Shown here piece after piece: positions 12,958 through 46,365 of a DNA stretch of 52,278 bases. The notes under the pieces were generated by a model. That model did no database searches, was not told the DNA's origin, and worked only from the letters and a program-made list of their open reading frames with translations. The stretch lies in the NCBI GenBank assembly GCA_964624125.1, contig CAZVAA010000001.1, positions 1 to 52,278 on the forward strand. Reading direction: 5' to 3'. Position 1 is the first letter of the stretch. Each line of letters opens with the position of its first letter. The stretch comes from an uncultured Sphaerobacteraceae bacterium (GTDB lineage Bacteria; Chloroflexota; Chloroflexia; Thermomicrobiales; UBA6265). The position numbers were made by a program, and so were the translations under genes.

Positions 12958-13058
12958 ACGGCCACAGTGTACGTACACAGCACGCGGCTGGCGTGCTTCG
13001 CTTTGCCCCGCAAGTGATCAACGGATCGTTTCCCGCAACGAGAGGAAGGGGACAACCT

Positions 13059-13829
13059 ATGGGACTTTGCATGCAGGGAATGGCTGATCCTTGCGGCAAT
13101 CGCGCTGGCGCGTTCATGACAAGGCTTGTCATGGCGTTCATGCTCGCCCTCGCGTTCGCAGGCACCCTCGCGGTGACTGCACCACAGGACGCTTCGGCCG
13201 GACAGGCTGGCCACATCAATACGCAAGGTGTTCCGCTGATGGCGGGCTACACCGACGATTCGGTCATCCTCTGGATGGATGAGGGCGTTCGGGTCGATAT
13301 CCTCTGGGGACCGGATAACGGCAAGTACGAGATCTACTACTACGATGTGCATGGCTGGGTCTCCGCCGAGTACATCACGCCGGAAGGGGCGGGCGGAGCG
13401 ACATCGGCGCCGACCACGACAGAGGCCCCGGCGGCGACTTCGGAGGCCGAGCACTGGATTGACGTCGACCGTTCGGATGGATCGGTCACGCTCTTCATCG
13501 GCGATGTGCCGCAGGCCACCTACTGGGGATCGCTTGGTTGGGATCCTTCGGATCACGGCTATTACTCCACCGCAGTCGGCACCTATTACGTGACCTGGAT
13601 GGATGCGTCGTTGACCTACACCCCGTTCGCGGATAACTACATCACCCACTGGGTCGGGTTCGATTGGGAGCGTGCAAACGGCTTCCATTCCTACACGAAG
13701 GACGCCAACGGCAACTTCGTGCCCGGAGGCGCCGGGGCGACCGCGGGATGCGTCGCCCTGAACGAGGAAGCGGCCCAGGCGGTCTACGACTTCGCCTTCC
13801 CGGGCATGCGCGTAGAGATCCATAACTAG
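13059..13829 (+). CDS. L,D-transpeptidase (YkuD domain) with an N-terminal SH3b-like domain
   Basis: Track ORF 12993-13829. ATG 13059 has GGAAGGGG 7 nt upstream. Signal-like LVMAFMLALAFAGTLAVTAPQDASA. The YkuD core ends in GFHSYT...GATAGCVALNEEAAQAVYDF, with catalytic His and Cys. Confidence 0.85.
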   Translation: MGLCMQGMADPCGNRAGAFMTRLVMAFMLALAFAGTLAVTAPQDASAGQAGHINTQGVPLMAGYTDDSVILWMDEGVRVDILWGPDNGKYEIYYYDVHGWVSAEYITPEGAGGATSAPTTTEAPAATSEAEHWIDVDRSDGSVTLFIGDVPQATYWGSLGWDPSDHGYYSTAVGTYYVTWMDASLTYTPFADNYITHWVGFDWERANGFHSYTKDANGNFVPGGAGATAGCVALNEEAAQAVYDFAFPGMRVEIHN

Positions 13830-13837
13830 GCGGCTCA

Positions 13838-14767
13838 ATGGCACGACGACGGGGAACTCAACGAAATGCGACGACGGGGACGGCAGTGACCGTCCTCGTC
13901 GTGTTGCTCTCACTTGCTGTTGTGTGGCAGGTCGCCTCGCTGCTCGGTCCAGGGGACCCTGCCGGTCCGGTGGTTGAGGACACCTTCTACACAACCGCCG
14001 ACGTCAACCTCCGCGCCGGGCCTGGTGTTGACTACGAGGTCCTGTCGGTCGTACCGGTTCGGGATGAGGTCACCGTCACCGGAGACGCCCGGGATGGCTT
14101 TCTCCCGGTGCGGACGCAGGGGGTGGATGCCTGGATTGCCTCCGATTACCTGTCGCCGGATGGAGTCACGCTCGCATCGAATGTCGATGTGGCCATGCCG
14201 ACGGAAGCGCCGCTTCCCACCGACGTTCCGCCGACCCAGGCTCCGCTGCCAACCGAGATTCCGCCGACGGAAGTGCCAGTTGTGACCGGGGAGCCGGTGG
14301 CGGATACGCTTGCGGCGGAGACCACCACCGTTGGGGAGGGCGCGCCGGCGGCCCGATCGCTCGATGTCACGACGCCCGAAGGCGAGCGGTGGGCCGAAGT
14401 TGACCGATCCACCGGAACCGTGACGCTCCATCAGGGCAACACGATCGTCGCATCCTTCCCCGCGCTGATCGGCAAGGATCCGTCCGCGGACGGGTATTAC
14501 GCGACCGCGGTGGGAACGTACTACGTCTTCTCAAAGGAGCGTGCGCTGACCGAGACGCCGTTCGCCCCGGGGGTGTATCTCACCGATTGGGTTGGCTTCG
14601 ATCCGGAGCGCAGCAACGGCTTCCATTCACCGACTCGTGACGAGCATGGAAATATCGTGCAGACCGGCGGCACCGCCACCCTCGGCTGTGTTCGGCTTGG
14701 CGAGGCTGACGCCCGCACCATGTTCGACTTCGCCTTTATCGGCATGCGAGTCGAGGTGCACGACTGA
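13838..14767 (+). CDS. L,D-transpeptidase (YkuD domain) with an SH3b-like domain and a Pro/Thr-rich linker
   Basis: Paralog of the preceding gene. SH3b-like ADVNLRAGPGVDYEVLSVVPVRDEVTV, linker PTEAPLPTDVPPTQAPLPTEIPPTEVP, and YkuD core GFHSPT...GTATLGCVRLGEADARTMFDF. Confidence 0.85.
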   Translation: MARRRGTQRNATTGTAVTVLVVLLSLAVVWQVASLLGPGDPAGPVVEDTFYTTADVNLRAGPGVDYEVLSVVPVRDEVTVTGDARDGFLPVRTQGVDAWIASDYLSPDGVTLASNVDVAMPTEAPLPTDVPPTQAPLPTEIPPTEVPVVTGEPVADTLAAETTTVGEGAPAARSLDVTTPEGERWAEVDRSTGTVTLHQGNTIVASFPALIGKDPSADGYYATAVGTYYVFSKERALTETPFAPGVYLTDWVGFDPERSNGFHSPTRDEHGNIVQTGGTATLGCVRLGEADARTMFDFAFIGMRVEVHD

Positions 14768-16618: not shown

Positions 16619-17107
16619 TTAGGCGTGGGCGGCGGGCGTTTCCTGGCAGGTCGGGCAGGTGCCGAACACCTCGAGCACGTGATCGTGTATCTCGAATGAG
16701 GTGGATACGGAGAGGTCCCGTACCAGGTCGTCGACCGGGCAAGCGGTAAAGGTCACCGTCGTGCCGCACTGGTCGCAGAGGAGATGGTGCCGGTGTCCCG
16801 GCGTGCCCCACATGTAGGTTGGGCGGCCATCCGGTTGCACGATCCGGGTGAGCACATCGATCGCCGCCAGCACCTCCAGCGTCCGGTACACCGTCGCCCG
16901 GCCAATATTCCTGCCTGCTTCGGTCTCCGCGATCTCCGCTACCAGCTCCTCGGCGGAGAAGGGGCGCGAGTGTCCGAGCACGGCGTCAACGATCGCCTGG
17001 CGTGGCTTCGTCAACCGGTAGCCATGAGCGCTGAGGACCCTTTGCACTTCATCGCGTGAAAGGACATTTGGTTCGTGATGGTGGGTGTCGACGTGCTGCG
17101 TTGTCAT
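16619..17107 (-). CDS. Fur-family metalloregulator (Zur-like by context)
   Basis: 162 aa with a winged-helix RATVYRTLEVL, then HHHLLCDQCG...(C)...HVLEVFGTCPTCQ, which are the Fur-family metal sites. It is first in line with the metal ABC genes. Confidence 0.85.
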   Translation of the reverse strand: MTTQHVDTHHHEPNVLSRDEVQRVLSAHGYRLTKPRQAIVDAVLGHSRPFSAEELVAEIAETEAGRNIGRATVYRTLEVLAAIDVLTRIVQPDGRPTYMWGTPGHRHHLLCDQCGTTVTFTACPVDDLVRDLSVSTSFEIHDHVLEVFGTCPTCQETPAAHA

Positions 17108-18639: not shown

Positions 18640-20730
18640 GTGCGTCCCGCGATGACAACGATGGTCCCCATGTACCGGCAGCGACGATTTGGCTTCCTGA
18701 TCCTGCTGGTGGCGTTGCTCGCCGGCTTGTTGCTGGCGCCCGTCCTCATGCCCGGCGCCTCCGCCCAGTCCAGCGAGCAGATCGTCTGGGACCAGTACAA
18801 CGTCGATCTCGACGTCGCGGAGGACGGCACCGTCCACGTCACCGAAACCCAGGTCGTGGTGTTCGATGGCCAGTTCACCACCGGTTTCGCCAATATCCCG
18901 CTCAATCGCGTTGAAGACCTCACGAACGTCCAGGTCGCCATCGGCATTGGTGAAGGGGCGGAACCGCAACCTGCCCAGGAAGTCGGCGTCTTCCGGGATC
19001 AACCGGGCACCTTTGCATACTCGCAGCGGGGCGGCATGCTGGAGCTCGACTATGCGTTCGAGCCAACACGCCGGGGCAATTCCTCGGCTGAAAACACCCG
19101 TACCGTCGTCATCGAGTACGACCTGATTGGCGCGATTCGCGTGTATGAGGATCTCGATCCCGCCAACCAACAGCTCCGCTGGGTCGCGATCGATAGCGAC
19201 GTGACCGAGATTGCGCCGATCCGCAGTTCAACCGTGACGGTCACCTTGCCCGAGACCGTTGATCCGGAGCAGACGGTCGCCCAGCCGGACGATGTCGAGA
19301 CCGACGGGCAGGTCTTTACCTGGACCCGCAGCGACCTCGAGAACGGCGACCGGCTTGAGGTCAATCTCCAGTTCCCACCGATCACCTCGGCTACGGTTCC
19401 TGCCTGGCAGGCCAGCGATGATGCCGCTCGTGAGGCAGCGCAGGAAGCCGAGGAGCGCTCCGCCGTCGCCGGCACACTCTTCCTCGGGGCTGGCTTGCTG
19501 CTCCTGATCGGCGGCAGCCTCCTGCTGGTCGGAATCTGGTACGCGCGGGGGCGTGATCCCGAGGTTGGCCTCGTCGCCGATGTGGTCCCCGAGCCGCCGG
19601 ACGATCTCCGTCCGGGCGCGGCTGGCACCCTCCTGGACGAGGAAACGCACCCGCGGGATGTGATTGCCACGATCTTCGATCTGGCCCGCCGTGGCGTGAT
19701 CCGCATGGATGAGAAGGAAACCGAGGGATTTTTCGGCTTCGGCAAGCGCACGACGCACACACTGACGCTGCTCAACCACGAGCTCGACCTGACCGGTTAC
19801 GAGCAGGTGCTGCTCGATGCCATCTTCGGGACGCATGCCGTCGATGGCATGGAAGTCTCGATGGGCACCGTCCAGCAAGCGTTCGCCCAGCGCGAGCAGC
19901 AGATCCACAATGGCTTTTACGACGAGCTCGTCGAGCACGGCTATTTCGATGCCTCGCCGGAGAAGACCCGCCAGCGGGCCAGGATCCTGGCGTTCATCGG
20001 TCCCGTGCTCGCGGCGATCGTCATCATCCTCGTGATCGTCTTTGCTGGTGCGAGCAGCGGATTCATCATCCTGCCGATCCTGGCGGCCATCGCGCTCTTC
20101 GTGATCGGCAACAAGGTGGCCACCCACCTGCCCCGCAAGACGCTCAAGGGCGCCGAGGCAGCCGCGAAATGGAGCGCCTTCAAGCGATATCTCGAGGACA
20201 TCGAGCAGCACGAGAACCTGGACGAGGCGAAACAGATCTTCGATCGCTACCTCCCGTACGCGACGGCGTTCGGCCTGGAGGACTCCTGGATCCGCAAGTT
20301 CTCGCAGGTCGATACCCCCATGCCGGATTGGTTCGGTCCGGTGATCATTGGTCAGCCGGGCCGCACCGGGTATCCGCGACGCGCCGGGCGGAGAATGGGG
20401 CCTGGCGGTGGCGTCTGGGTCTTCCCCTCTGGTGGTGGGAGCGCCCAGGGACGTCCTTCCGGCGGCGGTGGCTCTGGCGACGGCGGAGACGGTTTCGATA
20501 TGCCAACGCTGCAGGACGCGAGCGATGCCGCTGGCGGGTCGCTCCAGAGCGGTTCGGACAGCATTTTCGACATGCTCGGGACTGCTGCCGACATCTTCGG
20601 CGGCAAGGGTGGTTCCCGTGGCGGTGGCAGCTTCGGTAGCTGGGGCGGCGGAGGCGGAGGCTTCGGCGGCTTCAGTGGCGGAGGCGGCTTCGGTGGTGGA
20701 GGTGGCGGCGGTAGCCGTGGCTTCGGATGA
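18640..20730 (+). CDS. DUF2207-type membrane protein, paralog 1 (696 aa)
   Basis: Signal/anchor helix, ectodomain start IVWDQYNVDLDVAEDGTVHVTETQVVVFDGQF, a TM helix, cytoplasmic VPEPPDDLRPGAAGTLLDEETHPRDVIATIFDLARRG, two TM helices, RKTLKGAEAAAKWSAFKRYL, and a Gly-rich tail ending GGGGGGSRGFG. The start is uncertain (GTG 18640 or ATG 18652). Confidence 0.8.
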   Translation: MRPAMTTMVPMYRQRRFGFLILLVALLAGLLLAPVLMPGASAQSSEQIVWDQYNVDLDVAEDGTVHVTETQVVVFDGQFTTGFANIPLNRVEDLTNVQVAIGIGEGAEPQPAQEVGVFRDQPGTFAYSQRGGMLELDYAFEPTRRGNSSAENTRTVVIEYDLIGAIRVYEDLDPANQQLRWVAIDSDVTEIAPIRSSTVTVTLPETVDPEQTVAQPDDVETDGQVFTWTRSDLENGDRLEVNLQFPPITSATVPAWQASDDAAREAAQEAEERSAVAGTLFLGAGLLLLIGGSLLLVGIWYARGRDPEVGLVADVVPEPPDDLRPGAAGTLLDEETHPRDVIATIFDLARRGVIRMDEKETEGFFGFGKRTTHTLTLLNHELDLTGYEQVLLDAIFGTHAVDGMEVSMGTVQQAFAQREQQIHNGFYDELVEHGYFDASPEKTRQRARILAFIGPVLAAIVIILVIVFAGASSGFIILPILAAIALFVIGNKVATHLPRKTLKGAEAAAKWSAFKRYLEDIEQHENLDEAKQIFDRYLPYATAFGLEDSWIRKFSQVDTPMPDWFGPVIIGQPGRTGYPRRAGRRMGPGGGVWVFPSGGGSAQGRPSGGGGSGDGGDGFDMPTLQDASDAAGGSLQSGSDSIFDMLGTAADIFGGKGGSRGGGSFGSWGGGGGGFGGFSGGGGFGGGGGGGSRGFG

Positions 20731-20759
20731 TCCGCAGCAGCGCATCTCTTCTCCCGTAT

Positions 20760-20798
20760 CCCCGCCGGAATGTGTTCCGGCGGGGATTCCCATATTTT
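20760..20798 (+). terminator. Intrinsic terminator after DUF2207 paralog 1
   Basis: CCCCGCCGGA atgtgt TCCGGCGGGG followed by ATTCCCATATTTT. Confidence 0.5.
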
Positions 20799-20886
20799 GG
20801 CTGCGGTTATGGGAACTTTTCCGGCTGCGTTCCGGTTATATATGGTGAAACACAACCCTGCATGGTGAAGATGCCCGGAGACTCGT

Positions 20887-23040
20887 ATGGCCGAAGCCGA
20901 TCGTGATGAGAATATTGCCCGCGGATGTTTGACGACGTTCGTCGTTGGAATCGTCGCCATCTTTGTGCTGTTCGCGATGACGAACAGTGGTACCAGTAAT
21001 TCCGGCTCCAGGCAGTCAAGCGATAGCGTGGTATGGAACGTCTACGATGTCACCCTCGACATCGGCGCGGATGGCGTGATCCATGTCACCGAACGGCAGG
21101 AAGTTCGCTTCGATGGCGTTTTCAGCCAGGGATACGCGGTCATTCCCATGGACCGGATCGAGTCGATCGATAACGTCCGGATCACCGTCGAGGGCGCACC
21201 GCAAGACCTGAACAACAACAAGCTTCTTGATCGCGATGAGGCCACGCGCCCTGGCCCGATGCTGACCGCGACGCAGGTCTATGATCGCTCCCCATTCAAC
21301 AAGCTCGATCCCAATACCTTCCATGTGCAGGAGGGTGAAAACGACTTCCGTATCGATTACGGGTTCGAGCCCACCGGTGGCGGCGTGGTGTACACGGGCG
21401 GGTATCCGCAGGTCCGGACCGTTGTGCTGGAGTACGACGTGACCGGTGTTATTCGTGACTATCCGGAAGCCGAGGAGCCGTGGCAGCAGGTCCACTGGAT
21501 GGCGATCTCCAGCGAGGTCACTGACATCGCCAGGGTCCGGGAGGCTACCGTCACGATCAACTTGCCAGAAGCGGTTCCCGTCGAGGACCTTGCCTATGCG
21601 CCGGAGCCGCAGACCGTCGAGGGGAGCCATCTCGTCTGGACTCGCGAGAACATGGGTGAAGGAGATTTCTTCGACGCGCAGGTCGCATTCCCGGCCATCA
21701 CCTCGGCGACCGCGCCAGCGTGGCAGCCGGAGGCCGATGCCCGGGATGCCAGCATCGAGGAGCGCGAGAACCGGCAATCCCTTGCCGGCCTGCTCCTGAT
21801 AGGAGCCGGGATCCTGACCGTGGTCGGCGGTGGTCTCGGTATCCTGTACGCGTGGTTCACTCGCGTACGTGAGGTCGTGCCTGGAGTCGTTCCGGACCAG
21901 CTGTACGAGCCCCCGGACGATCTCCCTGCCGGCCTCGTCGGCGCCCTCGTTGACGAGGAGGTCAACCCGCGCGATATCGCCGCGACCATCCTCGATCTCC
22001 ATCACCGGGAAATTGTCCGCATCTCGGAGGTGCAGGCCGGCGACGAGCGCCCTCGATTCGCCCGACCGGAACGCGAGATCGAGTTGCTGCGGCCGCTCAG
22101 TTACGCCGATCCGTTCGAGCAGGAGATCCTCCGCGTGATCTTCGGAGATCGACCCGAGCGTGGTGTTACTCAACCCTTCAGTGCCTTGCGGGCGTTGTTC
22201 GGTTCGCAACGCCATCGGATCCAGCACGCGATAGACGAGGAACTGGTCGAGCGCGGCTACCTCGAGGAGTTGCCGGAGACGAGCCGGGAACGCTGGACCT
22301 GGCTGCTCAAGGGCATCGTTGGGTTCACGTTCCTGGTCTCGATCGGCCTTCTTCTTTGGCTTCAGGTGTGGACGTGGTGGGCGGTTATTCCCCCTGTGGC
22401 CGGTATCGCGATCTACTACGCTGGCAAGCGCCTGACCCCGTCCATCGCCCGCAAGACACCAAAGGGCGCCGAGGTCGCTGCTCGCTGGAAGGCGTTCGAG
22501 AACTTCCTGCGTTCAGATCACCGGGGACTCTTCAGCAAGGAGTGGGAGAAGATCAACGCCAGGTACCTGCCATGGGCGGTGGCGTTCGGGATGGACCACC
22601 GGTGGCTGAGCGCGATGAACGCCCCATTTGTGTCGTCCGCCGGCGCCGCGGCTTCGACCTCCCGCCCCTCAACGTCGTCCTCCCGTCCGTCGGGCACGTT
22701 TGGATCCGGCCGATCGTGGGGTGAATACGACACTCGCAGCCGGGGTGGTGGCAGTACCGGGCGCACCAGGTGGTCACCCACTGTTCCGAGCTGGGGCTGG
22801 GATGCCTCGCAATGGAGTGACATGCAGGGCGCCAGCGATAGCGTCTTCAGCAAGCTCAGTGCGGGCAGCGAGTCGATGTTCGAGATGATGGGTGACGCCA
22901 TGGCCGCCATTGGCGAGCATTCGAAGAACAGCGGCGGCGGAGGTGGCTGGTCCGGGGGTGGTGGCTTCGGCGGTTCGTCCAGTTCCGGCGGCGGACGCAG
23001 CAGCAGCTCCAGCGGTGGCGGCAGCCGGGGCTTCAGTTGA
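20887..23040 (+). CDS. DUF2207-type membrane protein, paralog 2 (717 aa)
   Basis: Collinear with paralog 1: VVWNVYDVTLDIGADGVIHVTERQEVRFDGVF, GVIRDYPEAEEPWQQVHWMAISSEVT, LYEPPDDLPAGLVGALVDEEVNPRDIAATILDL, RKTPKGAEVAARWKAFENFL, and a tail ending SGGGSRGFS. Confidence 0.8.
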   Translation: MAEADRDENIARGCLTTFVVGIVAIFVLFAMTNSGTSNSGSRQSSDSVVWNVYDVTLDIGADGVIHVTERQEVRFDGVFSQGYAVIPMDRIESIDNVRITVEGAPQDLNNNKLLDRDEATRPGPMLTATQVYDRSPFNKLDPNTFHVQEGENDFRIDYGFEPTGGGVVYTGGYPQVRTVVLEYDVTGVIRDYPEAEEPWQQVHWMAISSEVTDIARVREATVTINLPEAVPVEDLAYAPEPQTVEGSHLVWTRENMGEGDFFDAQVAFPAITSATAPAWQPEADARDASIEERENRQSLAGLLLIGAGILTVVGGGLGILYAWFTRVREVVPGVVPDQLYEPPDDLPAGLVGALVDEEVNPRDIAATILDLHHREIVRISEVQAGDERPRFARPEREIELLRPLSYADPFEQEILRVIFGDRPERGVTQPFSALRALFGSQRHRIQHAIDEELVERGYLEELPETSRERWTWLLKGIVGFTFLVSIGLLLWLQVWTWWAVIPPVAGIAIYYAGKRLTPSIARKTPKGAEVAARWKAFENFLRSDHRGLFSKEWEKINARYLPWAVAFGMDHRWLSAMNAPFVSSAGAAASTSRPSTSSSRPSGTFGSGRSWGEYDTRSRGGGSTGRTRWSPTVPSWGWDASQWSDMQGASDSVFSKLSAGSESMFEMMGDAMAAIGEHSKNSGGGGGWSGGGGFGGSSSSGGGRSSSSSGGGSRGFS

Positions 23041-23233
23041 GGTCGCAGCTCACACCAGGCACAGCGGAGGGGCCGCGTTGCGGGGCAACCCGTTTGGCTG
23101 CCGGAGACCGTTGCCTCAACCCTCCGGGCGCCTGCATCGCAGTTGGTCCCGATCGCCATCCGTCTGGACTCGTTCCCGTACTATGGTGGTGCTGGGAATC
23201 AAGATCAAACGCACCTAGCCAGGAGAATCCGTC

Positions 23234-25087
23234 GTGAAGACGCGGTTGACCGGGATCCTGTTTGTACTTCTTGCGCTCGTACTCAGCGGATCGCCGGCGG
23301 CTGCCGAAGGGGTTACCTGGCGCATCTACGATGTCGTCGTGGATATTCGCGACGACGGCTCGATTCACGTCACCGAGACGGTTGAGATTGATTTCAACGG
23401 TTCGTTCTCGGAGGGACACCGCTCGATTCCCATGGATCGAATCGAGTCCATCGACAATGTCCAGGTTGCCGTCGGTGATGGTGCAAATGCCGCAACGCCG
23501 TCCGAGCAGATGTCGCGAGACGATTATTCCGGCAATCCCGGCACCTATACGGTCTACAACGAGGATGGCCGCACCGTCATCGATTATGGGTTCGCACCGG
23601 TTAATGGATTGGAAACCCGTGCCGTCGTCATCGAGTACGACGCGTTGGGCGTGATTCGTGACTATCCGGAGAACGACCCGCCCCGGCAGGAGATTCGCTG
23701 GACGGCCATCTCCGATGAGGTGACCGCCGTCGGGCCGGTCCGGAGCGCCAGCGCGACAATCAATTTCCCCGAAAGCGTCGAGGGGAGCGAGGCCACCCGG
23801 TTCGATCCACAAGAGACGTCCGCCCACCCAACCGGAGTGACGTGGGAGAGAACGGGCATGGGAGAGGGTGACCAGCTTCAGGTGCTGGCCTCGTTCCCGA
23901 CCATGACCGATGCCACCGCGCCAGCGTGGCAAGCAGACGCGGACAAGTACGAAGGGCGACAGAACCTGGTCCCCGGGATGTCGATGATCGTCGGGTTGGT
24001 GACCGTGGTTGGGGCCGTGTTGATGGGGCTCTTTATGTGGCGGGAGGGTGTCCGTGAGCCCGCTACGGGTGCGATCATCGATATCCTGCCGGAGCCTCCC
24101 GGGGACCTGCCTGCTGGCCATGTCGGCGCCCTTATCGATGAGTCGTTCAGTTCCAATGATTTGCTCGCCATGATGATCGACCTCGAGCGACGGGGCACGA
24201 TCGAGATCACCGAGGACGCGTCCAGGAAGGAATCGGATCCTTCACGGTATAAGCTGCGACTCCTGGAACGCCCGGGTGATGCCCCGGCATGGCAGCGGCC
24301 GATGCTGGAAGGCCTCTTTGGTGACGGCGCTCCCGTTGGCGCAACCACCACGTTCGAGCGGCTGAAAAAGCTGGCGGCTTCTCACCGGGGCAAGATTGGC
24401 AGTGCGGTAGAGAAAGATCTTTACGAGCGCGGCTACTACGAGGAACCGCCATCGGAGAGCCGGAAGCGCTGGGGCCTTCGCATCGTCGGCGCCGCTTTCC
24501 TGGTCGCGCTCGTCGTCGGAGCGATCGCCCTGTGGTCGCGGTCGTTTGGCGGCTGGTTGATTGCCGTGGCCGTGGTGATCGGTGTTTGCGCGATCCTGCT
24601 CGGCATCCTGGTGACACAGGCGGCGCGAAAGTCGCAAGCCGGGGCGGAGGAAGCCGCCAAATGGAAGGCGTTCCAACGCTACCTGAAGCAGATGCAGAAG
24701 GAAATGGAGCCGGACCAGCGTCTCCAGTTGATGGATACGTACCTGCCCTGGACCATCGCGCTGGGGTTCGGGAAATCCGAGTGGAAGGAGTGGGAGCGGG
24801 ACGACCGCGACTACCGCTGGGGCACGCACCAGTATCGGCCGTGGGATTCGAGGTACCGCCATCACCATTCCGGGATGGAGAGTCGCTCGGGTGGCGGTGG
24901 CTCGTTCGATGTGCAGTCCATGAGTAACCGGGCCATGGGCGGCGTGGGCACGGCGAACCTCTCGATGATGGCGATGCTCAACGCCGCATCGGACACGATC
25001 AGCGCCGGGTCGGGTTCATCTTCCGGGTCAGGGAGCGGCTCCGCCTCGTCCGGCAGCAGCGGCGGCGGTGGCCACAGCTTCAGCTAG
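23234..25087 (+). CDS. DUF2207-type membrane protein, paralog 3 (617 aa)
   Basis: GTG start with AGGAGA upstream and signal peptide MKTRLTGILFVLLALVLSGSPAAAEG. Motifs VTWRIYDVVVDIRDDGSIHVTETVEIDFNGSF, GVIRDYPENDPPRQEIRWTAISDEVT, LPEPPGDLPAGHVGALIDE and RKSQAGAEEAAKWKAFQRYL. The tail ends GGGGHSFS. Confidence 0.8.
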   Translation: MKTRLTGILFVLLALVLSGSPAAAEGVTWRIYDVVVDIRDDGSIHVTETVEIDFNGSFSEGHRSIPMDRIESIDNVQVAVGDGANAATPSEQMSRDDYSGNPGTYTVYNEDGRTVIDYGFAPVNGLETRAVVIEYDALGVIRDYPENDPPRQEIRWTAISDEVTAVGPVRSASATINFPESVEGSEATRFDPQETSAHPTGVTWERTGMGEGDQLQVLASFPTMTDATAPAWQADADKYEGRQNLVPGMSMIVGLVTVVGAVLMGLFMWREGVREPATGAIIDILPEPPGDLPAGHVGALIDESFSSNDLLAMMIDLERRGTIEITEDASRKESDPSRYKLRLLERPGDAPAWQRPMLEGLFGDGAPVGATTTFERLKKLAASHRGKIGSAVEKDLYERGYYEEPPSESRKRWGLRIVGAAFLVALVVGAIALWSRSFGGWLIAVAVVIGVCAILLGILVTQAARKSQAGAEEAAKWKAFQRYLKQMQKEMEPDQRLQLMDTYLPWTIALGFGKSEWKEWERDDRDYRWGTHQYRPWDSRYRHHHSGMESRSGGGGSFDVQSMSNRAMGGVGTANLSMMAMLNAASDTISAGSGSSSGSGSGSASSGSSGGGGHSFS

Positions 25088-25133
25088 CATCGCCGTCTGG
25101 AAGCCGTTGGACGGTCATCACGCTAGACTGTGG

Positions 25134-25162
25134 AACGGGGCGGACGAAGGCCGCCCCGTTCA
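25134..25162 (+). terminator. Hairpin after paralog 3 (weak terminator candidate)
   Basis: GAACGGGGCGG acgaagg CCGCCCCGTTC, an 11-bp stem. The downstream ACCGTATTGAT is only weakly T-rich. Confidence 0.35.
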
Positions 25163-25213
25163 CCGTATTGATCCAGAATCACTTCCCGGACGCCTGCGAA
25201 ATGACAACGCCAC

Positions 25214-26341
25214 ATGACCACAACTGACGCCATCATCCGGCTCGCGCTGATCGGTGGCATGGTCCTCCTGCTCGTCGGAGGCCTGCTGCTGATCCTCGGT
25301 ATCTGGTACTTGCGTGGGCGCGATCCGCAGACCGGCCTGGTTGCCGATATCATCAGCGAGCCCCCGGACGATCTCCCACCCGGCGCCGTTGGCACGCTCC
25401 TCGACGAGCATGCCGACCATGAGGATGTCGTCGCGACGCTTCTCGGGCTCGGTCGAAATGGCGCTGTCACCATCGAGCAGGTACCGAGCGCGAACCGAAG
25501 GGTGCGGGACTACCTCATCACGCTCCTGCATCCTGACCGCATCACCGACCGCATCGAGCGTGACTTGCTTGTCGTGCTCTTTGGCACGTCGCCGCAGGCG
25601 ATGCAGGAGGTCCGCCTCAGCGATGTACGGGGCCGCTTCGCGCGCCATGAACCGCAGATCCGCGACGACCTCTATAACGAGCTTGTCACGCGCGGTTACT
25701 TCCCGGAAAACCCGCATACCCAGCGGCAGCGTTGGCGTCGCATCGCGTGGATCGGCTTCGGCCTCTCGTTCGTGATCGGCATCATCCTCGCGATCACCGT
25801 CGATCCCGTCGCCCTCGCAACGATGGTCGCGGCCATGGTTGTCTGGGGCGTCATGGTCCGCGTCAGCCGGCACATACCGCGCAAGACGGAGAAAGGCGCG
25901 GAAGCCGCCGCGAAGTGGCGGGCCTTCAAGCGCTACCTGCAATCCATCGAAAAGCAGCGCTCCCTGTCCGAGGCCTCGGACATCTTCGATCGCTACTTCT
26001 CCTATGCCGTCGCGTTCGGTATCGAGCGTGAGTGGATCCGCGCCTTCGCCAAGGCCGGCGCGGCAAAACCCGCCTGGTTCGGCGGGGTCGATGTGGGGGA
26101 TGTGGTCATCGCTGGCGACCTGGGCAACCTGGGCGACATCGGCGATATCGCGGGCGCGGGTAGGGTGATCGGGGAGATTGGTGGCTCCATCGGAGATGTC
26201 TCGCTCCCGGATGTGTCGATGCCCGACGTACAGGGGCTTTCAGATATGCTTGGCGGGACCTTGCAGGGCGCAAGCGACGGATTGAGCGGGTTACTGGATG
26301 CAGCAGGATCAGTCTTCGATGCCATTGACTTTGACCTCTGA
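25214..26341 (+). CDS. DUF2207-type paralog 4 (375 aa), with only the membrane/cytoplasmic half and no ectodomain
   Basis: Starts directly at the helix equivalent to the post-ectodomain TM (LLLILGIWYLRGRDPQTGLVADIISEPPDDLPPGAVGTLLDEHADHEDVVATLLGL). Keeps RKTEKGAEAAAKWRAFKRYL. The acidic GD-rich tail ends AGSVFDAIDFDL. An in-frame TGA at 25202-25204 excludes a longer N-terminus. Confidence 0.7.
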   Translation: MTTTDAIIRLALIGGMVLLLVGGLLLILGIWYLRGRDPQTGLVADIISEPPDDLPPGAVGTLLDEHADHEDVVATLLGLGRNGAVTIEQVPSANRRVRDYLITLLHPDRITDRIERDLLVVLFGTSPQAMQEVRLSDVRGRFARHEPQIRDDLYNELVTRGYFPENPHTQRQRWRRIAWIGFGLSFVIGIILAITVDPVALATMVAAMVVWGVMVRVSRHIPRKTEKGAEAAAKWRAFKRYLQSIEKQRSLSEASDIFDRYFSYAVAFGIEREWIRAFAKAGAAKPAWFGGVDVGDVVIAGDLGNLGDIGDIAGAGRVIGEIGGSIGDVSLPDVSMPDVQGLSDMLGGTLQGASDGLSGLLDAAGSVFDAIDFDL

Positions 26342-27128
26342 CGTGGCGCCCGTCGCGGCGTCATGGGTCGAGGTGCTCGACGTCCCGGTCGATCTCCTTG
26401 GAAGCGTTGGTGTCGAAGAGTGGGTGCGTGGCCAGCTCTCCAGCGGCGATGCCTGCGCTCACCTCGCGACCACGAACCCCGAGTACATCATGACCGCCCG
26501 CCGCGACCCGGATTTCTCGGCGGCCCTGCGTGAGGCCGAACTTTCGACGATTGACGGCGCCGGCCTCGCTGTCGCCGTTCGCCTGCTTGCGCCGAATGCC
26601 GATGCTTCGCGCGTTACCGGCGTCGATCTCACCTGGATGCTCGCACGCATCTCGGCCGAGACCGGGGACGGCATCTTCCTCCTCGGCGCTGCCCCGGGCA
26701 TCGCAGACAAGGCGGCCGGCCGCATGCGTGCCGCCTATCCCGGCGCGAACATTGTCGGCACCTGGGCCGAAGGCTCCCCGGCTCCGACGCACGACGCGGA
26801 ATCGATTCGCCGCATTGCGGAATCAGGCGCGACTATCCTCCTTGTTGCCTACGGCGCCCCGAAGCAGATCCACTGGATCGCTCGCAACCGCGAGGCGCTG
26901 TCTGCTTCCGGGGTTCGCCTTGTCATCGGCGTCGGTGGAGCGCTGGACTACGTCTCCGGTGAAACCCGATGGGCACCACCACTCGTGCGCAAGCTCGGCC
27001 TGGAGTGGGCGTATCGTCTCGTCCGTGAGCCGTGGCGGTGGCGACGCCAGCTCGTGCTCCCGGTCTTCGCTGTCCTCGTCTTGCGCGAGGCGGCCCGGCA
27101 GCGCATCAACCGCCTGCGTCGCCAATAG
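26298..27128 (+). CDS. WecB/TagA/CpsF-family glycosyltransferase (N-acetylmannosaminyltransferase-like)
   Basis: TTNPEYIM, IDGAGL, GAPKQIHWIARN, IGVGGALDYVSGETRWAPPLVRKLGLEWAYRLVREPWRWRRQ. The start is ambiguous (ATG 26298, ATG 26319 or GTG 26343). The first two overlap the end of paralog 4. Confidence 0.85.
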   Translation: MQQDQSSMPLTLTSDVAPVAASWVEVLDVPVDLLGSVGVEEWVRGQLSSGDACAHLATTNPEYIMTARRDPDFSAALREAELSTIDGAGLAVAVRLLAPNADASRVTGVDLTWMLARISAETGDGIFLLGAAPGIADKAAGRMRAAYPGANIVGTWAEGSPAPTHDAESIRRIAESGATILLVAYGAPKQIHWIARNREALSASGVRLVIGVGGALDYVSGETRWAPPLVRKLGLEWAYRLVREPWRWRRQLVLPVFAVLVLREAARQRINRLRRQ

Positions 27129-27223: not shown

Positions 27224-27805
27224 ATGGAATCCCCCTCCGGCCAGGTTCCCTGCACCTACCATCCGAATGTCATGACCGGCCTGCGCTGCGGTCGATGCGG
27301 AAAGCCGATCTGCTCGCAGGACGCCGTGCGCACCCAGGTCGGGCTGCGGTGCCCGGAATGCTCCGGCACACGACGTCCCGCCTCGATCCGCACCCAGTCT
27401 GACCAGCTCGTGAAAGCGGTCGGCGCCGCAGCACTCGTCGCGATCGTCGTTGCCGTCTTGTGGCGGTTCGCGCCGGACTGGGGTTTCTATCTTTCCCTCG
27501 CCCTCGGGTTCGGTGTTGTCGAGACGATCGCCAGGCTGACCGGCAACAAGCGCGGCCAGGATCTCCAGCTCATCGCGATCGCCATCGTCACCGGCGGCAT
27601 CCTGCTCAGCCGCTTTCTGCTTGCCCAGCGATTTGGCATCAGCTTCGGCGACCTGAACACGCTTGACGCTGTCGTCTGGAGCGAGGAAGTCCGTCAAACC
27701 TATGGCGGCCCGCGTTCAGTCGCGAACCTGCTCCGCATCCAGGCCGTGCCAGACCTTGTCTACCTGGCGCTCGCCTACGCGATTGCCTGGATTCGGTTCC
27801 GTTGA
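27224..27805 (+). CDS. Zinc-ribbon (CxxC...CxxC) N-terminal domain fused to a polytopic membrane domain, unknown function
   Basis: CTYHPNVMTGLRCGRCGKPICSQDAVRTQVGLRCPECSG followed by about 4 hydrophobic helices. The stop overlaps the murJ TTG start (TTGA). Confidence 0.6.
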   Translation: MESPSGQVPCTYHPNVMTGLRCGRCGKPICSQDAVRTQVGLRCPECSGTRRPASIRTQSDQLVKAVGAAALVAIVVAVLWRFAPDWGFYLSLALGFGVVETIARLTGNKRGQDLQLIAIAIVTGGILLSRFLLAQRFGISFGDLNTLDAVVWSEEVRQTYGGPRSVANLLRIQAVPDLVYLALAYAIAWIRFR

Positions 27806-29427
27806 GCGGTAGTTCCACCGATCCAACCCGATCATCGGCCCGGGGCGGTATTGCGCTCGCCGCGATGATCCTCATGCTCGGGAATATCCTCAGTCGTGTC
27901 CTGGGGCTCGTTCGCGAGCAGCTCGCCGCCGGGCTATTCGGTACTGGCAACGAGATCGCCGCGTTCACCGTCGCCGACAACATCCAGACGCTGCTCTTCG
28001 ATTTGCTGGCGAGCGGTGCGCTCCAGGCCGCGCTGATCCCCGTGCTCGCGCAATGGGCCGCGCCGGAAGCCGGAAGCCGGGACGAACTGCGACGCATCGG
28101 CGGTACCCTCGTCACGGGCGCTGTGGTCGTTGTTGGCGCGATGGTCGTCCTCGGAATGATCTTTGCCCCAACCGTCGTCGACGGATTGGTGCTGATCTCC
28201 GGCGACACCGAGGCTCGTGGCGAGGAGACGATCGACCTCACCATCCATCTCGTCCGCATCGTCCTCCCGGCGGCGCTCCTGCTCACCATCGGCACCGTGC
28301 TGCAGGCGATCCTCTATGCGATCGAGCGGGTGACCGCTCCCGCGCTCTCGACCGCCGTCCGTAACCTGATGATCGTCCTGTTTACGGCGATGTTCGGGTC
28401 CCTCTGGGGCGTCGAGGCGATGGCATGGGGCACCCTCGCGGGGGCCGGGGCGATCGTCCTGATCCAGATCCCGCCGCTGATCCGCCATGGCGTGATGCCC
28501 CGGCCCAGCTTCGACTACAAGCACCCCGCGCTGCGCCAGATGGGCCTGCTGTACATCCCTGTCTTCCTCGGATTGCTCGTCAATACCGTCGCGGTGATCG
28601 TGGATCGCGGTCTCGCGTGGGGAGCAGGTGAGGATGCCATCGGCGCCATGCGCTACGCGACAACGCTGGTGCAACTGACCCTCGGGATCGTGGCCGCCGC
28701 GATCTCGCTGGCCGCCCTGCCGACCTTGTCGCGTCACTTCCAGTCACGCGATACCGTCGCCTATCGCACCACGCTTGGCCGGGCGCTTGTGATGGTCACC
28801 GTGATGATCTTCCCGGCGACCTTCGGGCTGGCCGCCCTCTCGCAGCCGATCTCGGAACTGCTGTTTGGCTATGGCGCGACCGGAGATGAGGGCCTCCGTC
28901 AAATCTCGATGGCGCTTCTCGGCTACCTGCCAGGCACCCTGATGGCCGCCTACGACCAGGTCCTGATCTTTGCCTTCTACGCGCGCCAGAACACCCGCCT
29001 GCCGGTCGCGATCGGCGTCGCGGCGGTGCTCGTGTACTTCGTCGTCGCCTTTTCGCTGGTCGACGCCCTTGGCATGATGGGACTTGTCCTCGCGAACTCC
29101 GCCCAGTTCATCGCCCACACGCTGACCATTTTCTGGTTCGCCCGCCGCCACTTCGGCTGGTTGCCATCACCCCGTCTCAGTTACCTCGTGCCGCGTTGCG
29201 CCCTCGCGGCCGGCGTTGCGGCCGTCGGCGCTTTCGCCCTCTGGTTCGGCCTGGCGGAGGTGTCGCCGGAGGCCACCGGAGCAGCGGACGTTCTCCTCCG
29301 GTTCGCGCTCGTCAGCATCCCAGGAGTCCTCTTCGCGAGCATCTACGTTCCGTGGGTCATGCGTCTCTGCCCGAACGAGGTCGCGCTCATAAGGAACGCC
29401 ATCGCAGCGCGGATCCCGGGCCGATAG
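27802..29427 (+). CDS. murJ: Lipid II flippase MurJ (MviN family)
   Basis: 541 aa, about 14 TM. N-terminal GNILSRVLGLVREQLAAGLFGTGNEIAAFTVADNIQTLLFDLLASGALQAALIPVL is the canonical MurJ opening. Confidence 0.9.
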   Translation: MSGSSTDPTRSSARGGIALAAMILMLGNILSRVLGLVREQLAAGLFGTGNEIAAFTVADNIQTLLFDLLASGALQAALIPVLAQWAAPEAGSRDELRRIGGTLVTGAVVVVGAMVVLGMIFAPTVVDGLVLISGDTEARGEETIDLTIHLVRIVLPAALLLTIGTVLQAILYAIERVTAPALSTAVRNLMIVLFTAMFGSLWGVEAMAWGTLAGAGAIVLIQIPPLIRHGVMPRPSFDYKHPALRQMGLLYIPVFLGLLVNTVAVIVDRGLAWGAGEDAIGAMRYATTLVQLTLGIVAAAISLAALPTLSRHFQSRDTVAYRTTLGRALVMVTVMIFPATFGLAALSQPISELLFGYGATGDEGLRQISMALLGYLPGTLMAAYDQVLIFAFYARQNTRLPVAIGVAAVLVYFVVAFSLVDALGMMGLVLANSAQFIAHTLTIFWFARRHFGWLPSPRLSYLVPRCALAAGVAAVGAFALWFGLAEVSPEATGAADVLLRFALVSIPGVLFASIYVPWVMRLCPNEVALIRNAIAARIPGR

Positions 29428-29456: not shown

Positions 29457-30650
29457 TCAGTGCCGCTGCCCAATCCACGGCTCGGCGATGCGGTATGCCT
29501 CGTTCCAGACTGTCCGGATCGCCACGTCATGCTCGCGGGCGATCTCCACGCAATCGTCGTATTCCGGCATGGCGTCGATCACCCGGCCGTTCCATATGCG
29601 CAGTTTCACCCGCACATCTCCCCACCGGGTCGTCGCGTTCTGGATGTGGCGAGCGGTTTTCGTCCGCTCGATCGGTATCGCCCGTACGCCGAGCGTCGAC
29701 GTGTTCTCGATGAGCACCGACTCCAGTTCCTGTCGCCGGGAAACAGGCGCGAGCACGCTCATCTGGACCGCCGGCCGGCCCTTCTTCATCGTGATGGGGG
29801 TCGTCCATACGTCCAGTGCGCCGCGCGCGAAGAGCCGTTCCGTCGCCAGCTCGATGAACTGCGGGTTCATGTCGTCGATATTCGTCTCAAGCAGGATCTC
29901 GCCGTCAGCCGGGCCATCGTCGTCGACCTCACCGATCCACACCCGTAGCGCGTTCGGCCATGGCAGCTCCTTCTGGCCGAAGCCGTACCCGATCGCGGTG
30001 GGGGAGAAGGACGGTTGCCCGAACGTCGCCATCGTCGTCAGGATCGCCGCGCCGGTTGGCGTGAGCAATTCTGCCGGCGTCTCCGCGATCAGCGGCGTCG
30101 GCTTGGCGACCGGGGCGTTTGCCTGCGCCACCAGCTCCAGCGTCGCCGGCGCGGGCACCGGGATCGTCCCGTGGGCGCTGTTGGCGAAGCCGTGGCCCAT
30201 CTGCAACGGACCACACATCACCGCGTCGATCCCGAGTAGCGAGAATCCGATGCAGGCGCCACAGATATCCACGATCGCATCGACCCCGCCGACCTCATGG
30301 AAGTGGACATGGTCGATCGTTGTCTCGTGAATCTTCGCCTCCGCGATCGCCAGTCGCTCGAAGATTTGAAGCGCGGCTGACCTGACGTCCGCATCAAGAC
30401 TGGACTCCTCGATCAGCACCCGGATATCGCCCCACGTTCGCGAATGGACATCCTCCGTCACATCGACGTGAACCCGTGTGCCGTGAATGCCATGCTGCCC
30501 GGCTCGATCCTTGCGAAGGGTGTACCCTCCGATCTCGATCTTGCTCAGCTCCGTCGAAAGATCGGCGACGGAAAGGCCGGCATCGACCAGCGCGCCAAGG
30601 ATCATGTCGCCACTGGCGCCGGAATACGGATCGAAATACGCGATTTTCAT
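29457..30650 (-). CDS. larC: Nickel-pincer cofactor biosynthesis protein LarC (DUF111 nickel insertion protein)
   Basis: Track ORF 29457-30674, trimmed to MKIAYFDPYSGASGDMILGALVDAGL, the LarC N-terminal signature. Also HFHEVGGVDAIVDI. Confidence 0.85.
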   Translation of the reverse strand: MKIAYFDPYSGASGDMILGALVDAGLSVADLSTELSKIEIGGYTLRKDRAGQHGIHGTRVHVDVTEDVHSRTWGDIRVLIEESSLDADVRSAALQIFERLAIAEAKIHETTIDHVHFHEVGGVDAIVDICGACIGFSLLGIDAVMCGPLQMGHGFANSAHGTIPVPAPATLELVAQANAPVAKPTPLIAETPAELLTPTGAAILTTMATFGQPSFSPTAIGYGFGQKELPWPNALRVWIGEVDDDGPADGEILLETNIDDMNPQFIELATERLFARGALDVWTTPITMKKGRPAVQMSVLAPVSRRQELESVLIENTSTLGVRAIPIERTKTARHIQNATTRWGDVRVKLRIWNGRVIDAMPEYDDCVEIAREHDVAIRTVWNEAYRIAEPWIGQRH

Positions 30651-30819
30651 GAACGGAAGCCTCCGGTCTGGCACTCGTATCGTAGGACGGCAAATCTACC
30701 GGTGATCACCCTCACCGGATGTCTATACCTTCGGATACACTTGACCCACAGCATACCCGTGGATCGCCTGTTTCCCCAGACGTCTCGCAAGCGGTCACGA
30801 GGTATGGAGGAGTTTCGGT

Positions 30820-40273: not shown

Positions 40274-41326
40274 GTGGATAGGCGAACGCCCGAAAGGGAC
40301 GATCTGGCACTTACAGAACGGCAGCGTGTCATTCTGAAAATGCTGGTGAAGGAATACGTTGCCTCGGGACGCCCGGTAGGATCCAAGATCCTCGCCGAGC
40401 AGTACCCGACGCGCGTGTCGTCCGCGACGATCCGCAACGAGATGGTCGAGCTCGAGGAGCTTGGCGTTGTCCAGCAGCCGCATACCTCCGGCGGGCGCAT
40501 CCCGACGGATAAAGGCTACCGGTATTACGTTCATCACCTGATGGGAACGCCCGAGCTCTCCTCGGGGGATCAGATCATGATCCGTCACCAGTTCCGGCAG
40601 GTGGAGGCCCAGCTCGACTCCTGGGTGGATTTCGCTGCATCCGTGCTGGCGGAAACCGCCGGCAATGTCTCGATCGTGACCGCTCCGCGGTCGATGGTGG
40701 CGCGTCTGCGCCATTTCGAGATGATCTCCCTGCAGCCGCGGATCGCATTGATGATCCTCGTCACGCAGGAGAGCGCGGTGCGGCAGATGATGTTGCACCT
40801 GCCAGAAGATACCGATCAGGCACTGCTCAGCCAGCTCGCCGACGCCATGGTCCCCATGCTGCGGGGTATGGGCGCGGACGAGGTCGAGATGCATGCCGCC
40901 GGCTCAACTGGCCTTGCGTCCTATGTGCTGGAGCAGATCGCTACCGGGCTCAGGGGCATGGGGTCGGTCGAGCACACGCAGATGCGGCATTCAGGGCTCG
41001 AGAACATCCTCGGACAACCGGAGTTCGCCGGGGCCGAGGGGTACAACGTGCTCGAATTGCTACGGGGCAGTTCACTGCTCGGCGCGTTGCTGCCGCAAAT
41101 GACGGTTGGCAACGAGGTCCAGGTCTTTATCGGGGATGAGAATCCCGCCGACGCCTTGCGGCGCTTTGGCGTCGTGATGGCGACATACGGCATCGATGGC
41201 GAGGTGACGGGCATTCTCGGAGTGCTCGGCCCCACACGCATGTCGTACTGGCGGTCCATCTCATCGGTGCGCTATATGGCACGGCTCATGAGCGACCTGA
41301 TGGAAGACCTGTATTCATCAGATTAA
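40274..41326 (+). CDS. hrcA: Heat-inducible transcription repressor HrcA
   Basis: LTERQRVILKMLVKEYVASGRPVGSKILAEQY...SSATIRNEMVELEELGVVQQPHTSGGRIPTDKGYRYYV. GTG start with TAGGAG upstream. Confidence 0.95.
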   Translation: MDRRTPERDDLALTERQRVILKMLVKEYVASGRPVGSKILAEQYPTRVSSATIRNEMVELEELGVVQQPHTSGGRIPTDKGYRYYVHHLMGTPELSSGDQIMIRHQFRQVEAQLDSWVDFAASVLAETAGNVSIVTAPRSMVARLRHFEMISLQPRIALMILVTQESAVRQMMLHLPEDTDQALLSQLADAMVPMLRGMGADEVEMHAAGSTGLASYVLEQIATGLRGMGSVEHTQMRHSGLENILGQPEFAGAEGYNVLELLRGSSLLGALLPQMTVGNEVQVFIGDENPADALRRFGVVMATYGIDGEVTGILGVLGPTRMSYWRSISSVRYMARLMSDLMEDLYSSD

Positions 41327-41342
41327 CGAGAACACGAACCGG

Positions 41343-41972
41343 ATGATTGATACTGCGTCGGGTCTCATGGCCAGGCGACAGGGAGGCAGCGGAGTGTCGA
41401 AACCAGAAAACAACATTCATGAAGAAGATGTCGTCGAAGAGATGACAGACGAGGAAGAGGCCCAGGAGACCGGGGAACAGGACGCGGAAAACGAGCTGGA
41501 GCGGGTTATCGCCGAGCGCGATGAGTTTTTCGACCAGCTGCAGCGGAGCCGCGCCGAGTTCATCAACTTCCGCAAGCGCAGTGAGCAGGAGAAGACGCGC
41601 CTTGGCGAACTCTTCACCTCGAACACGCTCGCGCAATTCCTGCCGGTTCTCGATGATTTCGAGCGCGCCATCGCCGCGGTTCCGGAAAAGGACAAGGATT
41701 CCGGCTGGGTCGCGGGCATCACCATGATCCACAAGAAACTGCTGGGCATCCTCGAGCGCGCCAATGTCGAGACGATCGACCAGGTGAATGTGCCGTTCGA
41801 TCCGGCCGTGCATGAAGCCGTTGCCGCGGAGCCGGGGACAAATGGTGATGCCGTCGTCGAGATTTACCAGAAGGGTTACAAGCTCGGCGGCACGTTGCTG
41901 CGCGCCGCGATGGTGAAGACCGGAGACGCTGCCGAAGATATCAACGAGAAAACTGACGGATTCGACGCCTGA
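41343..41972 (+). CDS. grpE: Nucleotide exchange factor GrpE
   Basis: Acidic N-terminus, then ELERVIAERDEFFDQLQRSRAEFINFRKRSEQEK and FDPAVHEAV...GYKLGGTLLRAAMV. Confidence 0.9.
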   Translation: MIDTASGLMARRQGGSGVSKPENNIHEEDVVEEMTDEEEAQETGEQDAENELERVIAERDEFFDQLQRSRAEFINFRKRSEQEKTRLGELFTSNTLAQFLPVLDDFERAIAAVPEKDKDSGWVAGITMIHKKLLGILERANVETIDQVNVPFDPAVHEAVAAEPGTNGDAVVEIYQKGYKLGGTLLRAAMVKTGDAAEDINEKTDGFDA

Positions 41973-42034
41973 CGCGTCGCGACAAACCAGTACATGCCGC
42001 GTACGCTCGCGGATGATCAAGGAGACAACGAATT

Positions 42035-46329: not shown

Positions 46330-46359
46330 TTGACATTAGTGTGTGACACACAGTATCGT
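46330..46359 (+). promoter_or_regulatory. padR promoter with an embedded palindromic operator candidate
   Basis: TTGACA (46330-46335), an 18-nt spacer, then TATCGT (46354-46359). The spacer contains TAGTGTGTG-A-CACACAGTA (46337-46355), a 19-bp palindrome with one mismatched pair. The ATG at 46366 lies only 7 nt after the -10. Confidence 0.4.
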
Positions 46360-46365
46360 GTTTGC

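Follow-up and report, generated by a model that had tools for sequence, protein, structure and literature searches.

A lineage-specific DUF2207 expansion at a conserved envelope locus of Thermomicrobiales, with signs of a division into two transcription units

DUF2207 is a very widespread family of bacterial membrane proteins without a known mechanism, whose described members, such as Escherichia coli YciQ and Streptococcus mutans SMU.243, combine an N domain (PF09972) with a C domain (PF20990, DUF2207_C) and are usually encoded by one gene. The only DUF2207 phenotype in the literature searched is that of an S. mutans mutant, which was acid- and oxidant-sensitive and biofilm-defective and whose gene adjoins uppP (PMC10457818); E. 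coli yciQ has been used in the literature as a neutral integration site. The same searches returned no mechanistic work on DUF2207, YciQ, LemA with TPM, or LemA with Toastrack and PspA, and no description of a DUF2207 array like the one reported here. We analyzed a 52,278-nt stretch of DNA (hereafter the window; contig CAZVAA010000001.1 of assembly GCA_964624125.1, positions 1 to 52,278, forward strand) from an uncultured Sphaerobacteraceae bacterium of the Thermomicrobiales (Chloroflexota), in which four tandem DUF2207 paralogs, labeled D1–D4 in 5′ to 3′ order, lie on the plus strand. D1–D3 have the same two domains and the same layout as the known members, whereas the array departs from them in its copy number, in having one paralog without the N domain, in being embedded in a wecG–murJ gene cluster and in carrying inside it a promoter-like box of the extracytoplasmic function (ECF) sigma factor type. 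The array is a lineage-specific DUF2207 expansion in Thermomicrobiales at a conserved envelope locus, and the locus is a variant of a known, uncharacterised family that offers a useful functional lead, not a new kind of system. We give a probability of roughly 0.6 to the reading that it is a selected paralog array organized as two transcription units, D1 by itself and an ECF-type unit D2–D3–D4–wecG–znf–murJ, with a role in envelope maintenance.

The array consists of D1 at positions 18640 to 20730 (696 aa, full-length), D2 at 20887 to 23040 (717 aa, full-length, limited to the array clade), D3 at 23234 to 25087 (617 aa, full-length, sister of D2) and D4 at 25214 to 26341 (375 aa, without an ectodomain), separated by spacers of 156, 193 and 126 nt. 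These four same-strand open reading frames (ORFs), with these coordinates and lengths, had been pointed out in an earlier note made from the sequence alone, and every peptide motif that it quoted was found in the translations. All four are frames with a high GC content at the third codon position, as is typical of coding frames. Public gene callers placed the start of D1 four codons later, giving a protein of 692 aa, and the ATG at 18652 is probably the true start. In Pfam scans, D1, D2 and D3 matched PF09972 with 61.6, 56.8 and 47.8 bits (E-values of 1e-12 to 1e-16), above the gathering score of 24.4 bits, and D4 had no PF09972 match, which makes it a C-only member. PF20990, with a gathering score of 33 bits, was matched by all four at 146.2, 110.3, 96.3 and 146.2 bits, respectively (E-values of 3e-27 to 2e-42 for D1–D3 and 1.8e-42 for D4), nearly the whole profile being covered each time. 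The family assignment made in the earlier note was thus borne out by both domains in D1–D3 and by the C domain in D4. The NCBIfam model TIGR04222, with a curated cut-off of 43 bits, was not reached by D1 (22.4 bits) or D3 (22.1 bits) and gave no match for D2 and D4. Pairwise identity among D1–D4 was only 29–38%, which identifies the four genes as long-diverged paralogs and rules out a duplication made by the assembly.

With HMMs (hidden Markov models) built for each of the two domains, N and C, we scanned 80 Chloroflexota genome loci together with contigs found by protein look-up. Every DUF2207 homolog belonged to uncultured Thermomicrobiales or to other Chloroflexota. Most of the 80 genome loci held a single full-length gene, in agreement with the view that the family is usually a singleton. 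In eight loci (L008, L009, L011, L012, L015, L021, L046 and L086), a full-length gene was followed by a C-only gene, and the order of three full-length genes and one C-only gene found in the window recurred in L004/L005, L006, L007, L001/L077, L090 and L091, so that the four-gene array, for which a survey of relatives had been proposed, is shared with related genomes. L039, the closest species-level genome (its D1 is 71% identical), carried D1, D2 and D4 and had a 318-nt spacer in place of D3. Across these genomes, the same syntenic site holds one, two, three or four genes, and this natural series separates a conserved core, formed by the full-length gene and the C-only gene, from accessory copies.

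The individual copies could be followed between genomes. By tblastn, 1:1 orthologs were found in L004 with identities of about 70% (D1), 55% (D2), 54% (D3) and 71% (D4), and each copy had a 1:1 ortholog in at least seven other contigs. In a neighbor-joining tree of the C modules with 200 bootstraps, the array D1 genes (support 1.0), D2 genes (1.0) and D3 genes (0.975) each formed a group, as did D2 with D3 (1.0) and all C-only genes including D4 (0.975). The single-copy gene of L002 was 45% identical to D1 and 31–37% identical to D2–D4, and D1, as the copy closest to the single-copy genes, is orthologous to the ancestral single gene. On this tree, D4 falls into an older C-only clade that occurs also in two-gene loci, and the branching indicates that the C-only partner was gained first and D2 and D3 later, in one clade. 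The D4 orthologs comprised at least 120 clusters of 355–411 aa, all matching PF20990 only, and about 22 intact clusters of D2 orthologs were found at 43–70% identity, with the next matches dropping to 32–39%. An exhaustive search with the C module of D4 retrieved 5,712 relatives (representative clusters at 50% identity), among which C-only proteins were a recurring minority.

We then measured selection on the four copies by the ratio of nonsynonymous to synonymous substitution rates (dN/dS). Two contigs of one long-read sample (ERZ25039483), L001 and L090, are 88% identical with an unsaturated synonymous divergence (dS) of 0.39–0.52, and their comparison gave dN/dS values of 0.067, 0.138, 0.085 and 0.089 for D1, D2, D3 and D4, against 0.046–0.089 for the flanking genes. 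The comparison of the window with L004 gave 0.14, 0.22, 0.23 and 0.10, with 0.17–0.19 for the flanking genes, and was down-weighted because its dS was saturated (1.5–2.1). All four copies are under purifying selection. The rate of evolution of D2 and D3 is roughly double that of D1 and D4, and D3 was lost once, in L039.

These data bear directly on whether only D1 is functional and D2–D4 are drifting remnants of tandem duplication, a view that is largely refuted and that we consider very improbable. It draws on the facts that conservation is lowest in D2 and D3, that L039 has no D3 and one frame change in its D2, and that 1-nt frame changes interrupt the orthologs of both D2 and D3 in L001 (12196–16297) and L090 (5792–9908). 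However, the four ORFs are intact in the window, L004/L005, L006, L007 and L091, the D2 and D3 values from the L001–L090 pair lie in the same range as those of flanking genes, and D4 is full-length in its many ortholog clusters. The frame changes themselves are most likely long-read assembly errors, since L001 and L090 have no 1-nt indel in common, similar indels occur in the ABCatp and MurJ genes, and the coding signal is strongly constrained, although the indels are enriched in D2 and D3, which hold six of the eight 1-nt indels in the block shared by the two contigs. Pseudogenisation of D2 and D3 in L001 and L090 was rejected on the same indel pattern together with the dN/dS of 0.09–0.14. 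The claim of the earlier note that the copies are not decaying duplicates therefore held, on 1:1 orthologs in at least seven contigs and on dN/dS well below 1 in two independent comparisons. L086, from the same long-read sample, had one 1-nt indel in its D1 ortholog.

The topology of the proteins was read from hydropathy peaks and the helices of AlphaFold2 (AF2) models, whose mean predicted local distance difference test (pLDDT) scores were 81 for D1 and 80.6 for D4 (predicted template modeling score 0.74). Both sources agreed with the DUF2207 topology of an N-terminal signal or anchor, a transmembrane (TM) helix, a cytoplasmic module and two further TM helices. D1 consists of a signal or anchor helix (residues 13–32), a β-sandwich ectodomain (approximately residues 48–245), a long helix (255–304) that holds the first TM segment (hydropathy peak at 281–299), a cytoplasmic α/β module and two TM helices (440–469 and 474–495), after which come a helical region bearing the RK[TS]xxGAExAA[KR]W motif, a disordered tail rich in Gly and, at the C-terminus, a conserved helix. 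D4 starts only with the TM helix in front of the cytoplasmic module and has only the last three of the four membrane helices of D1; the cytoplasmic module, two TM helices and the helical region then follow, and the protein ends in an acidic Gly/Asp tail with the conserved C-terminal helix. The proposal that all four copies keep every topological element is accordingly right for D1–D3 and wrong for D4, which has no ectodomain.

In Foldseek searches, the ectodomain resembled the non-catalytic N-terminal β-sandwich of M1 aminopeptidases (ERAP1, APN and LTA4H), ribophorin I of the oligosaccharyltransferase and a putative protease of Bacteroides, with E-values of 1e-8 to 1e-6 over alignments of about 225–240 columns at 8–15% identity; the TM-scores were low (0.15–0.3) when taken over whole chains. 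The catalytic domain of the M1 enzymes is absent from the DUF2207 proteins, and we read the modeled likeness as that of a generic binding fold, indicating neither membership of those families nor an enzyme. A stator of the TolQ/ExbB/MotA type was considered for the C module and rejected: the top Foldseek matches of D4 had E-values of 0.8 or more (the best with a probability of 0.15) and TM-scores of 0.16–0.24. Within the TM2/TM3 core no polar residue was invariant; R171 and K224, the closest charged residues that are invariant, lie at the helix boundaries.

A binding-type β-sandwich present in three full-length copies would suit a set of specificity variants, in which diversified ectodomains bind different extracellular ligands or envelope components. 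The ectodomains of D1–D3 are indeed only 41–46% identical, and the faster evolution of D2 and D3 points the same way. Nevertheless, the ectodomain is the better conserved half of these proteins, the C modules being 29–37% identical, which is the opposite of what ligand-driven diversification would produce; moreover, D4 has no ectodomain to diversify, and there was no sign of positive selection (dN/dS of at most 0.14). We therefore regard this explanation as unlikely.

We next describe the signals within the array from which the division into two units is drawn. Directly after D1, a terminator-like element at positions 20758 to 20800 of the plus strand consists of a 13-bp GC-rich hairpin (20758–20787; dG -27.6, z -5.0) and a T-rich tail (ATATTTTGG). 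A hairpin and T-run were found directly 3′ of the D1 stop codon in all eight array loci, where the position is kept and the sequence is not, with cleaner T-runs than in the window in L004, L039, L091 and L090; the same arrangement directly follows the D1 ortholog of the two-gene locus L009. Downstream of this element, the D1–D2 spacer contains the ECF-sigma-type promoter-like motif GGAAC-N18-GTT at 20812 to 20837 of the plus strand, with the putative -35 box at 20812–20816 and the -10 GTT at 20835–20837. The motif ends 49 nt upstream of the D2 ATG, and a GGAG Shine-Dalgarno sequence lies at 20877–20880. In all eight array D1–D2 spacers, which are otherwise about 47% identical, the two boxes and their spacing were identical and the motif sat 49–67 nt before the D2 start. 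In L002 and L023, whose DUF2207 genes are sister to the D1 genes of the arrays, it also lies upstream of the single-copy gene. In two-gene loci, the spacer that separates the full-length gene from the C-only gene measures 35–150 nt and lacks the motif.

In Corynebacterium and Mycobacterium, the published consensus for ECF stress promoters of the sigmaE/sigmaH type is GGAAC-N18-19-GTT, and the regulons known for this promoter type contain membrane proteins as well as cell-surface stress genes (PMC10012870). The window motif matches these actinobacterial promoters in its -35 and -10 boxes, in their spacing and in its suitable distance from a start codon, although the phylum differs. A sigma-70 promoter scan found no candidate between 18300 and 27300, and Rfam, run on the window and the spacers, gave nothing at the gathering score and two sub-threshold chance matches inside coding sequence.

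The genes downstream of D4 are closely joined to the array. A wecG/tagA-family glycosyltransferase gene (26298 to 27128, plus strand; PF03808, E-value 2e-48) has a start that overlaps the end of D4 by 23–44 nt, and this overlap between DUF2207 and wecG is kept in L001, L006, L007, L090 and the single-copy locus L002. It is followed on the same strand by the gene for a zinc-ribbon-like protein of 193 aa, Znf193 (27224 to 27805), with a CxxC...CxxC N-terminus and a hydrophobic C-terminal half, whose stop codon overlaps the start of the gene for a MurJ-family flippase (27802 to 29427, plus strand; PF03023, E-value 8e-71), the last gene of the conserved cluster. Znf193 had no Pfam or PADLOC match, and in almost every Thermomicrobiales locus its gene, with 39–65% protein identity, occupies the place between wecG and murJ.

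The terminator-like hairpin after D1, the GGAAC-N18-GTT box and the D4–wecG and znf–murJ overlaps lead us to propose two transcription units. D1 would be transcribed alone and end at the conserved hairpin, and D2–D3–D4 would be co-transcribed with wecG–znf–murJ from a promoter of the sigmaE/sigmaH ECF type, which D2–D4 would probably share as a stress-type promoter with the cell-wall genes. The paralogs would thus be split mainly by regulation, a constitutive D1 standing against a stress-induced D2–D4 set. What is new here, namely the D1 hairpin and the conserved box in the eight array loci, suggests two units and is a matter of sequence comparison. Separate control of the copies, which had been expected from the hairpins in the spacers, is supported only for D1 versus the rest: D4 overlaps wecG, and the hairpin in the D3–D4 spacer (25133 to 25161, plus strand; dG -24.7, z -3.9) has no U-tract and no comparable counterpart in the orthologous arrays, whose spacers are shorter there. 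This window-specific hairpin could be an attenuator or an RNA-stability element.

At the protein level, the favored reading is that the DUF2207 proteins may serve envelope maintenance at the membrane. Their β-sandwich ectodomain, which is non-catalytic, might contact an envelope component, the TM and cytoplasmic C module common to all four might mediate assembly or signaling, and D4 could be an ectodomain-less subunit or modulator. The stress and envelope theme agrees with the S. mutans phenotype and with the pairing of LemA loci with either an M48 HtpX-type protease or DUF2207 (see below). The box predicts that D2–D4 are induced by stress along with the cell-wall genes, and the tight, conserved coupling to wecG/tagA and murJ provides a testable handle on DUF2207 function. 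These findings overturn nothing current and narrow where that function should be sought.

Several observations weigh against this reading. The tail of the D1 hairpin in the window (TCCCATATTTTGG) is interrupted, and a simple terminator scanner gave no call. GGAAC-N18-GTT occurs exactly once in the 52-kb window, where about one occurrence is expected by chance, so it is the conservation of the motif, not its one match here, that makes the case for a promoter, and the loci in which it is conserved are related and non-independent. The motif was not found upstream of most other Thermomicrobiales DUF2207 genes, and ECF control, if real, would therefore be specific to a clade. Neither an ECF sigma nor an anti-sigma gene was found in the window, with no Sigma70_r2 or Sigma70_r4 domain among the ORFs scanned. 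Furthermore, the C module had no significant structural neighbor in Foldseek (the best being TolQ/ExbB with an E-value of 0.8), a PDB sequence search with the family profile returned noise only and no solved homolog, and the authors of the S. mutans study concluded that the DUF2207 protein seemingly does not act in envelope biogenesis (PMC10457818).

Coupling to cell-wall genes also admits a more specific idea, which would make DUF2207 proteins accessory factors, inducible by stress, in the handling of polyprenol-linked cell-wall precursors. In this clade, an ECF sigmaE-like factor would induce an alternative DUF2207 set (D2, D3 and the ectodomain-less D4) along with TagA/WecG and the MurJ-family flippase. 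The set would cooperate physically with these enzymes, its ribophorin-like ectodomain touching the lipid-linked glycan or the growing polymer on the outer side of the membrane. We hold this to be unlikely; if true, it would be the first mechanistic foothold for a family that counts over 5,700 clusters at 50% identity.

A further possibility, raised in the earlier note, is an obligate hetero-oligomer, with D1–D4 as four non-redundant subunits of one envelope machine that are all needed. In its favor, the four genes are adjacent, collinear and on the same strand, their 1:1 orthologs keep the same order in several lineages, purifying selection acts on every one of them, and the conserved C-terminal helix and the RK[TS]xxGAExAA[KR]W motif are common to all. 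On the other hand, D3 is missing from L039, the closest species-level genome, many relatives manage with a full-length and C-only pair or with one gene at the same locus, and D1 seems to be transcriptionally insulated from D2–D4. An obligate complex of all four thus appears improbable, and we retain the two-unit paralog array with an envelope-maintenance role as the favored explanation.

We also examined the relation to LemA, next to which DUF2207 had been said often to occur. Pfam scans of essentially all ORFs in the window gave no PF04011 match, and a LemA consensus probe, validated against PF04011 (E-value 4.5e-71), gave none either, in line with the reported absence of LemA from the window. 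With the same probe, LemA was found within 10 kb of none of 85 Chloroflexota DUF2207 loci, and its absence therefore does not distinguish this locus, contrary to the weight that had been given to it. From the LemA side, we collected 80 LemA loci from metagenomes (L092–L171) and classified 43 genes directly downstream of lemA, of which 31 encoded an M48 peptidase (HtpX-type, often overlapping) and four a full-length DUF2207 protein. The pairing of LemA with DUF2207 exists and is a minority arrangement in this sample, so that the supposed association stands as to its existence but not as to its frequency. In such pairs, the full-length DUF2207 gene lies directly 3′ of lemA, in contrast to the array described here, which has no lemA. 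M48 peptidases and DUF2207 proteins may be alternative partners of LemA.

The wider neighborhood of the array follows a common order of lysS, greA, two YkuD genes, a divergent Fur/ABC metal operon, DUF2207, wecG/tagA, the zinc-ribbon protein gene, murJ and larC. The Fur/WecG/Znf/MurJ synteny was present throughout Thermomicrobiales and not in Anaerolineae or other distant Chloroflexota, in which the DUF2207 contexts were variable. The Fur-family regulator gene (16619 to 17107, minus strand; PF01475) heads the divergent metal ABC-transporter operon and, on the evidence of synteny in some 45 Thermomicrobiales loci, marks a conserved boundary on the upstream side of the DUF2207 locus. Upstream of this operon, as in most Thermomicrobiales loci, lie two YkuD L,D-transpeptidase genes in tandem (12993–14767, plus strand), the second with an SH3_3 domain; they add a cell-wall flavor to the neighborhood.

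Between Fur and D1, the window alone carried a SelA-like or class-V aminotransferase-like gene on the plus strand (start at 17056 or 17335, end at 18480), and in L004 a different Aminotran_5 gene was found between D4 and wecG; aminotransferase-like genes at the array edges in these two loci point to local rearrangement. PADLOC defense-system models matched none of D1–D4, Znf193 or the SelA-like protein. Beyond murJ, the gene for the nickel insertion protein LarC (29457–30674, minus strand) is full-length in the window (405 aa), as it is in L009 and L086, and a C-terminal remnant of about 150 aa was found at the same position in L001 (20610–21068), L002 (14972–15421), L090 and L091.

Other features of the window, all on the plus strand, included a gene for a multi-cupredoxin protein of 911 aa (34608–37343) with three plastocyanin/azurin-type copper-binding domains and a cupredoxin domain, an hrcA–grpE–dnaK heat-shock operon (40274–44002), and a PadR-family regulator gene followed by that of a HAAS-domain membrane protein (46330–47711), which form a typical PadR/HAAS signaling pair. 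The multi-cupredoxin gene was also found in syntenic position in L086 and L090.

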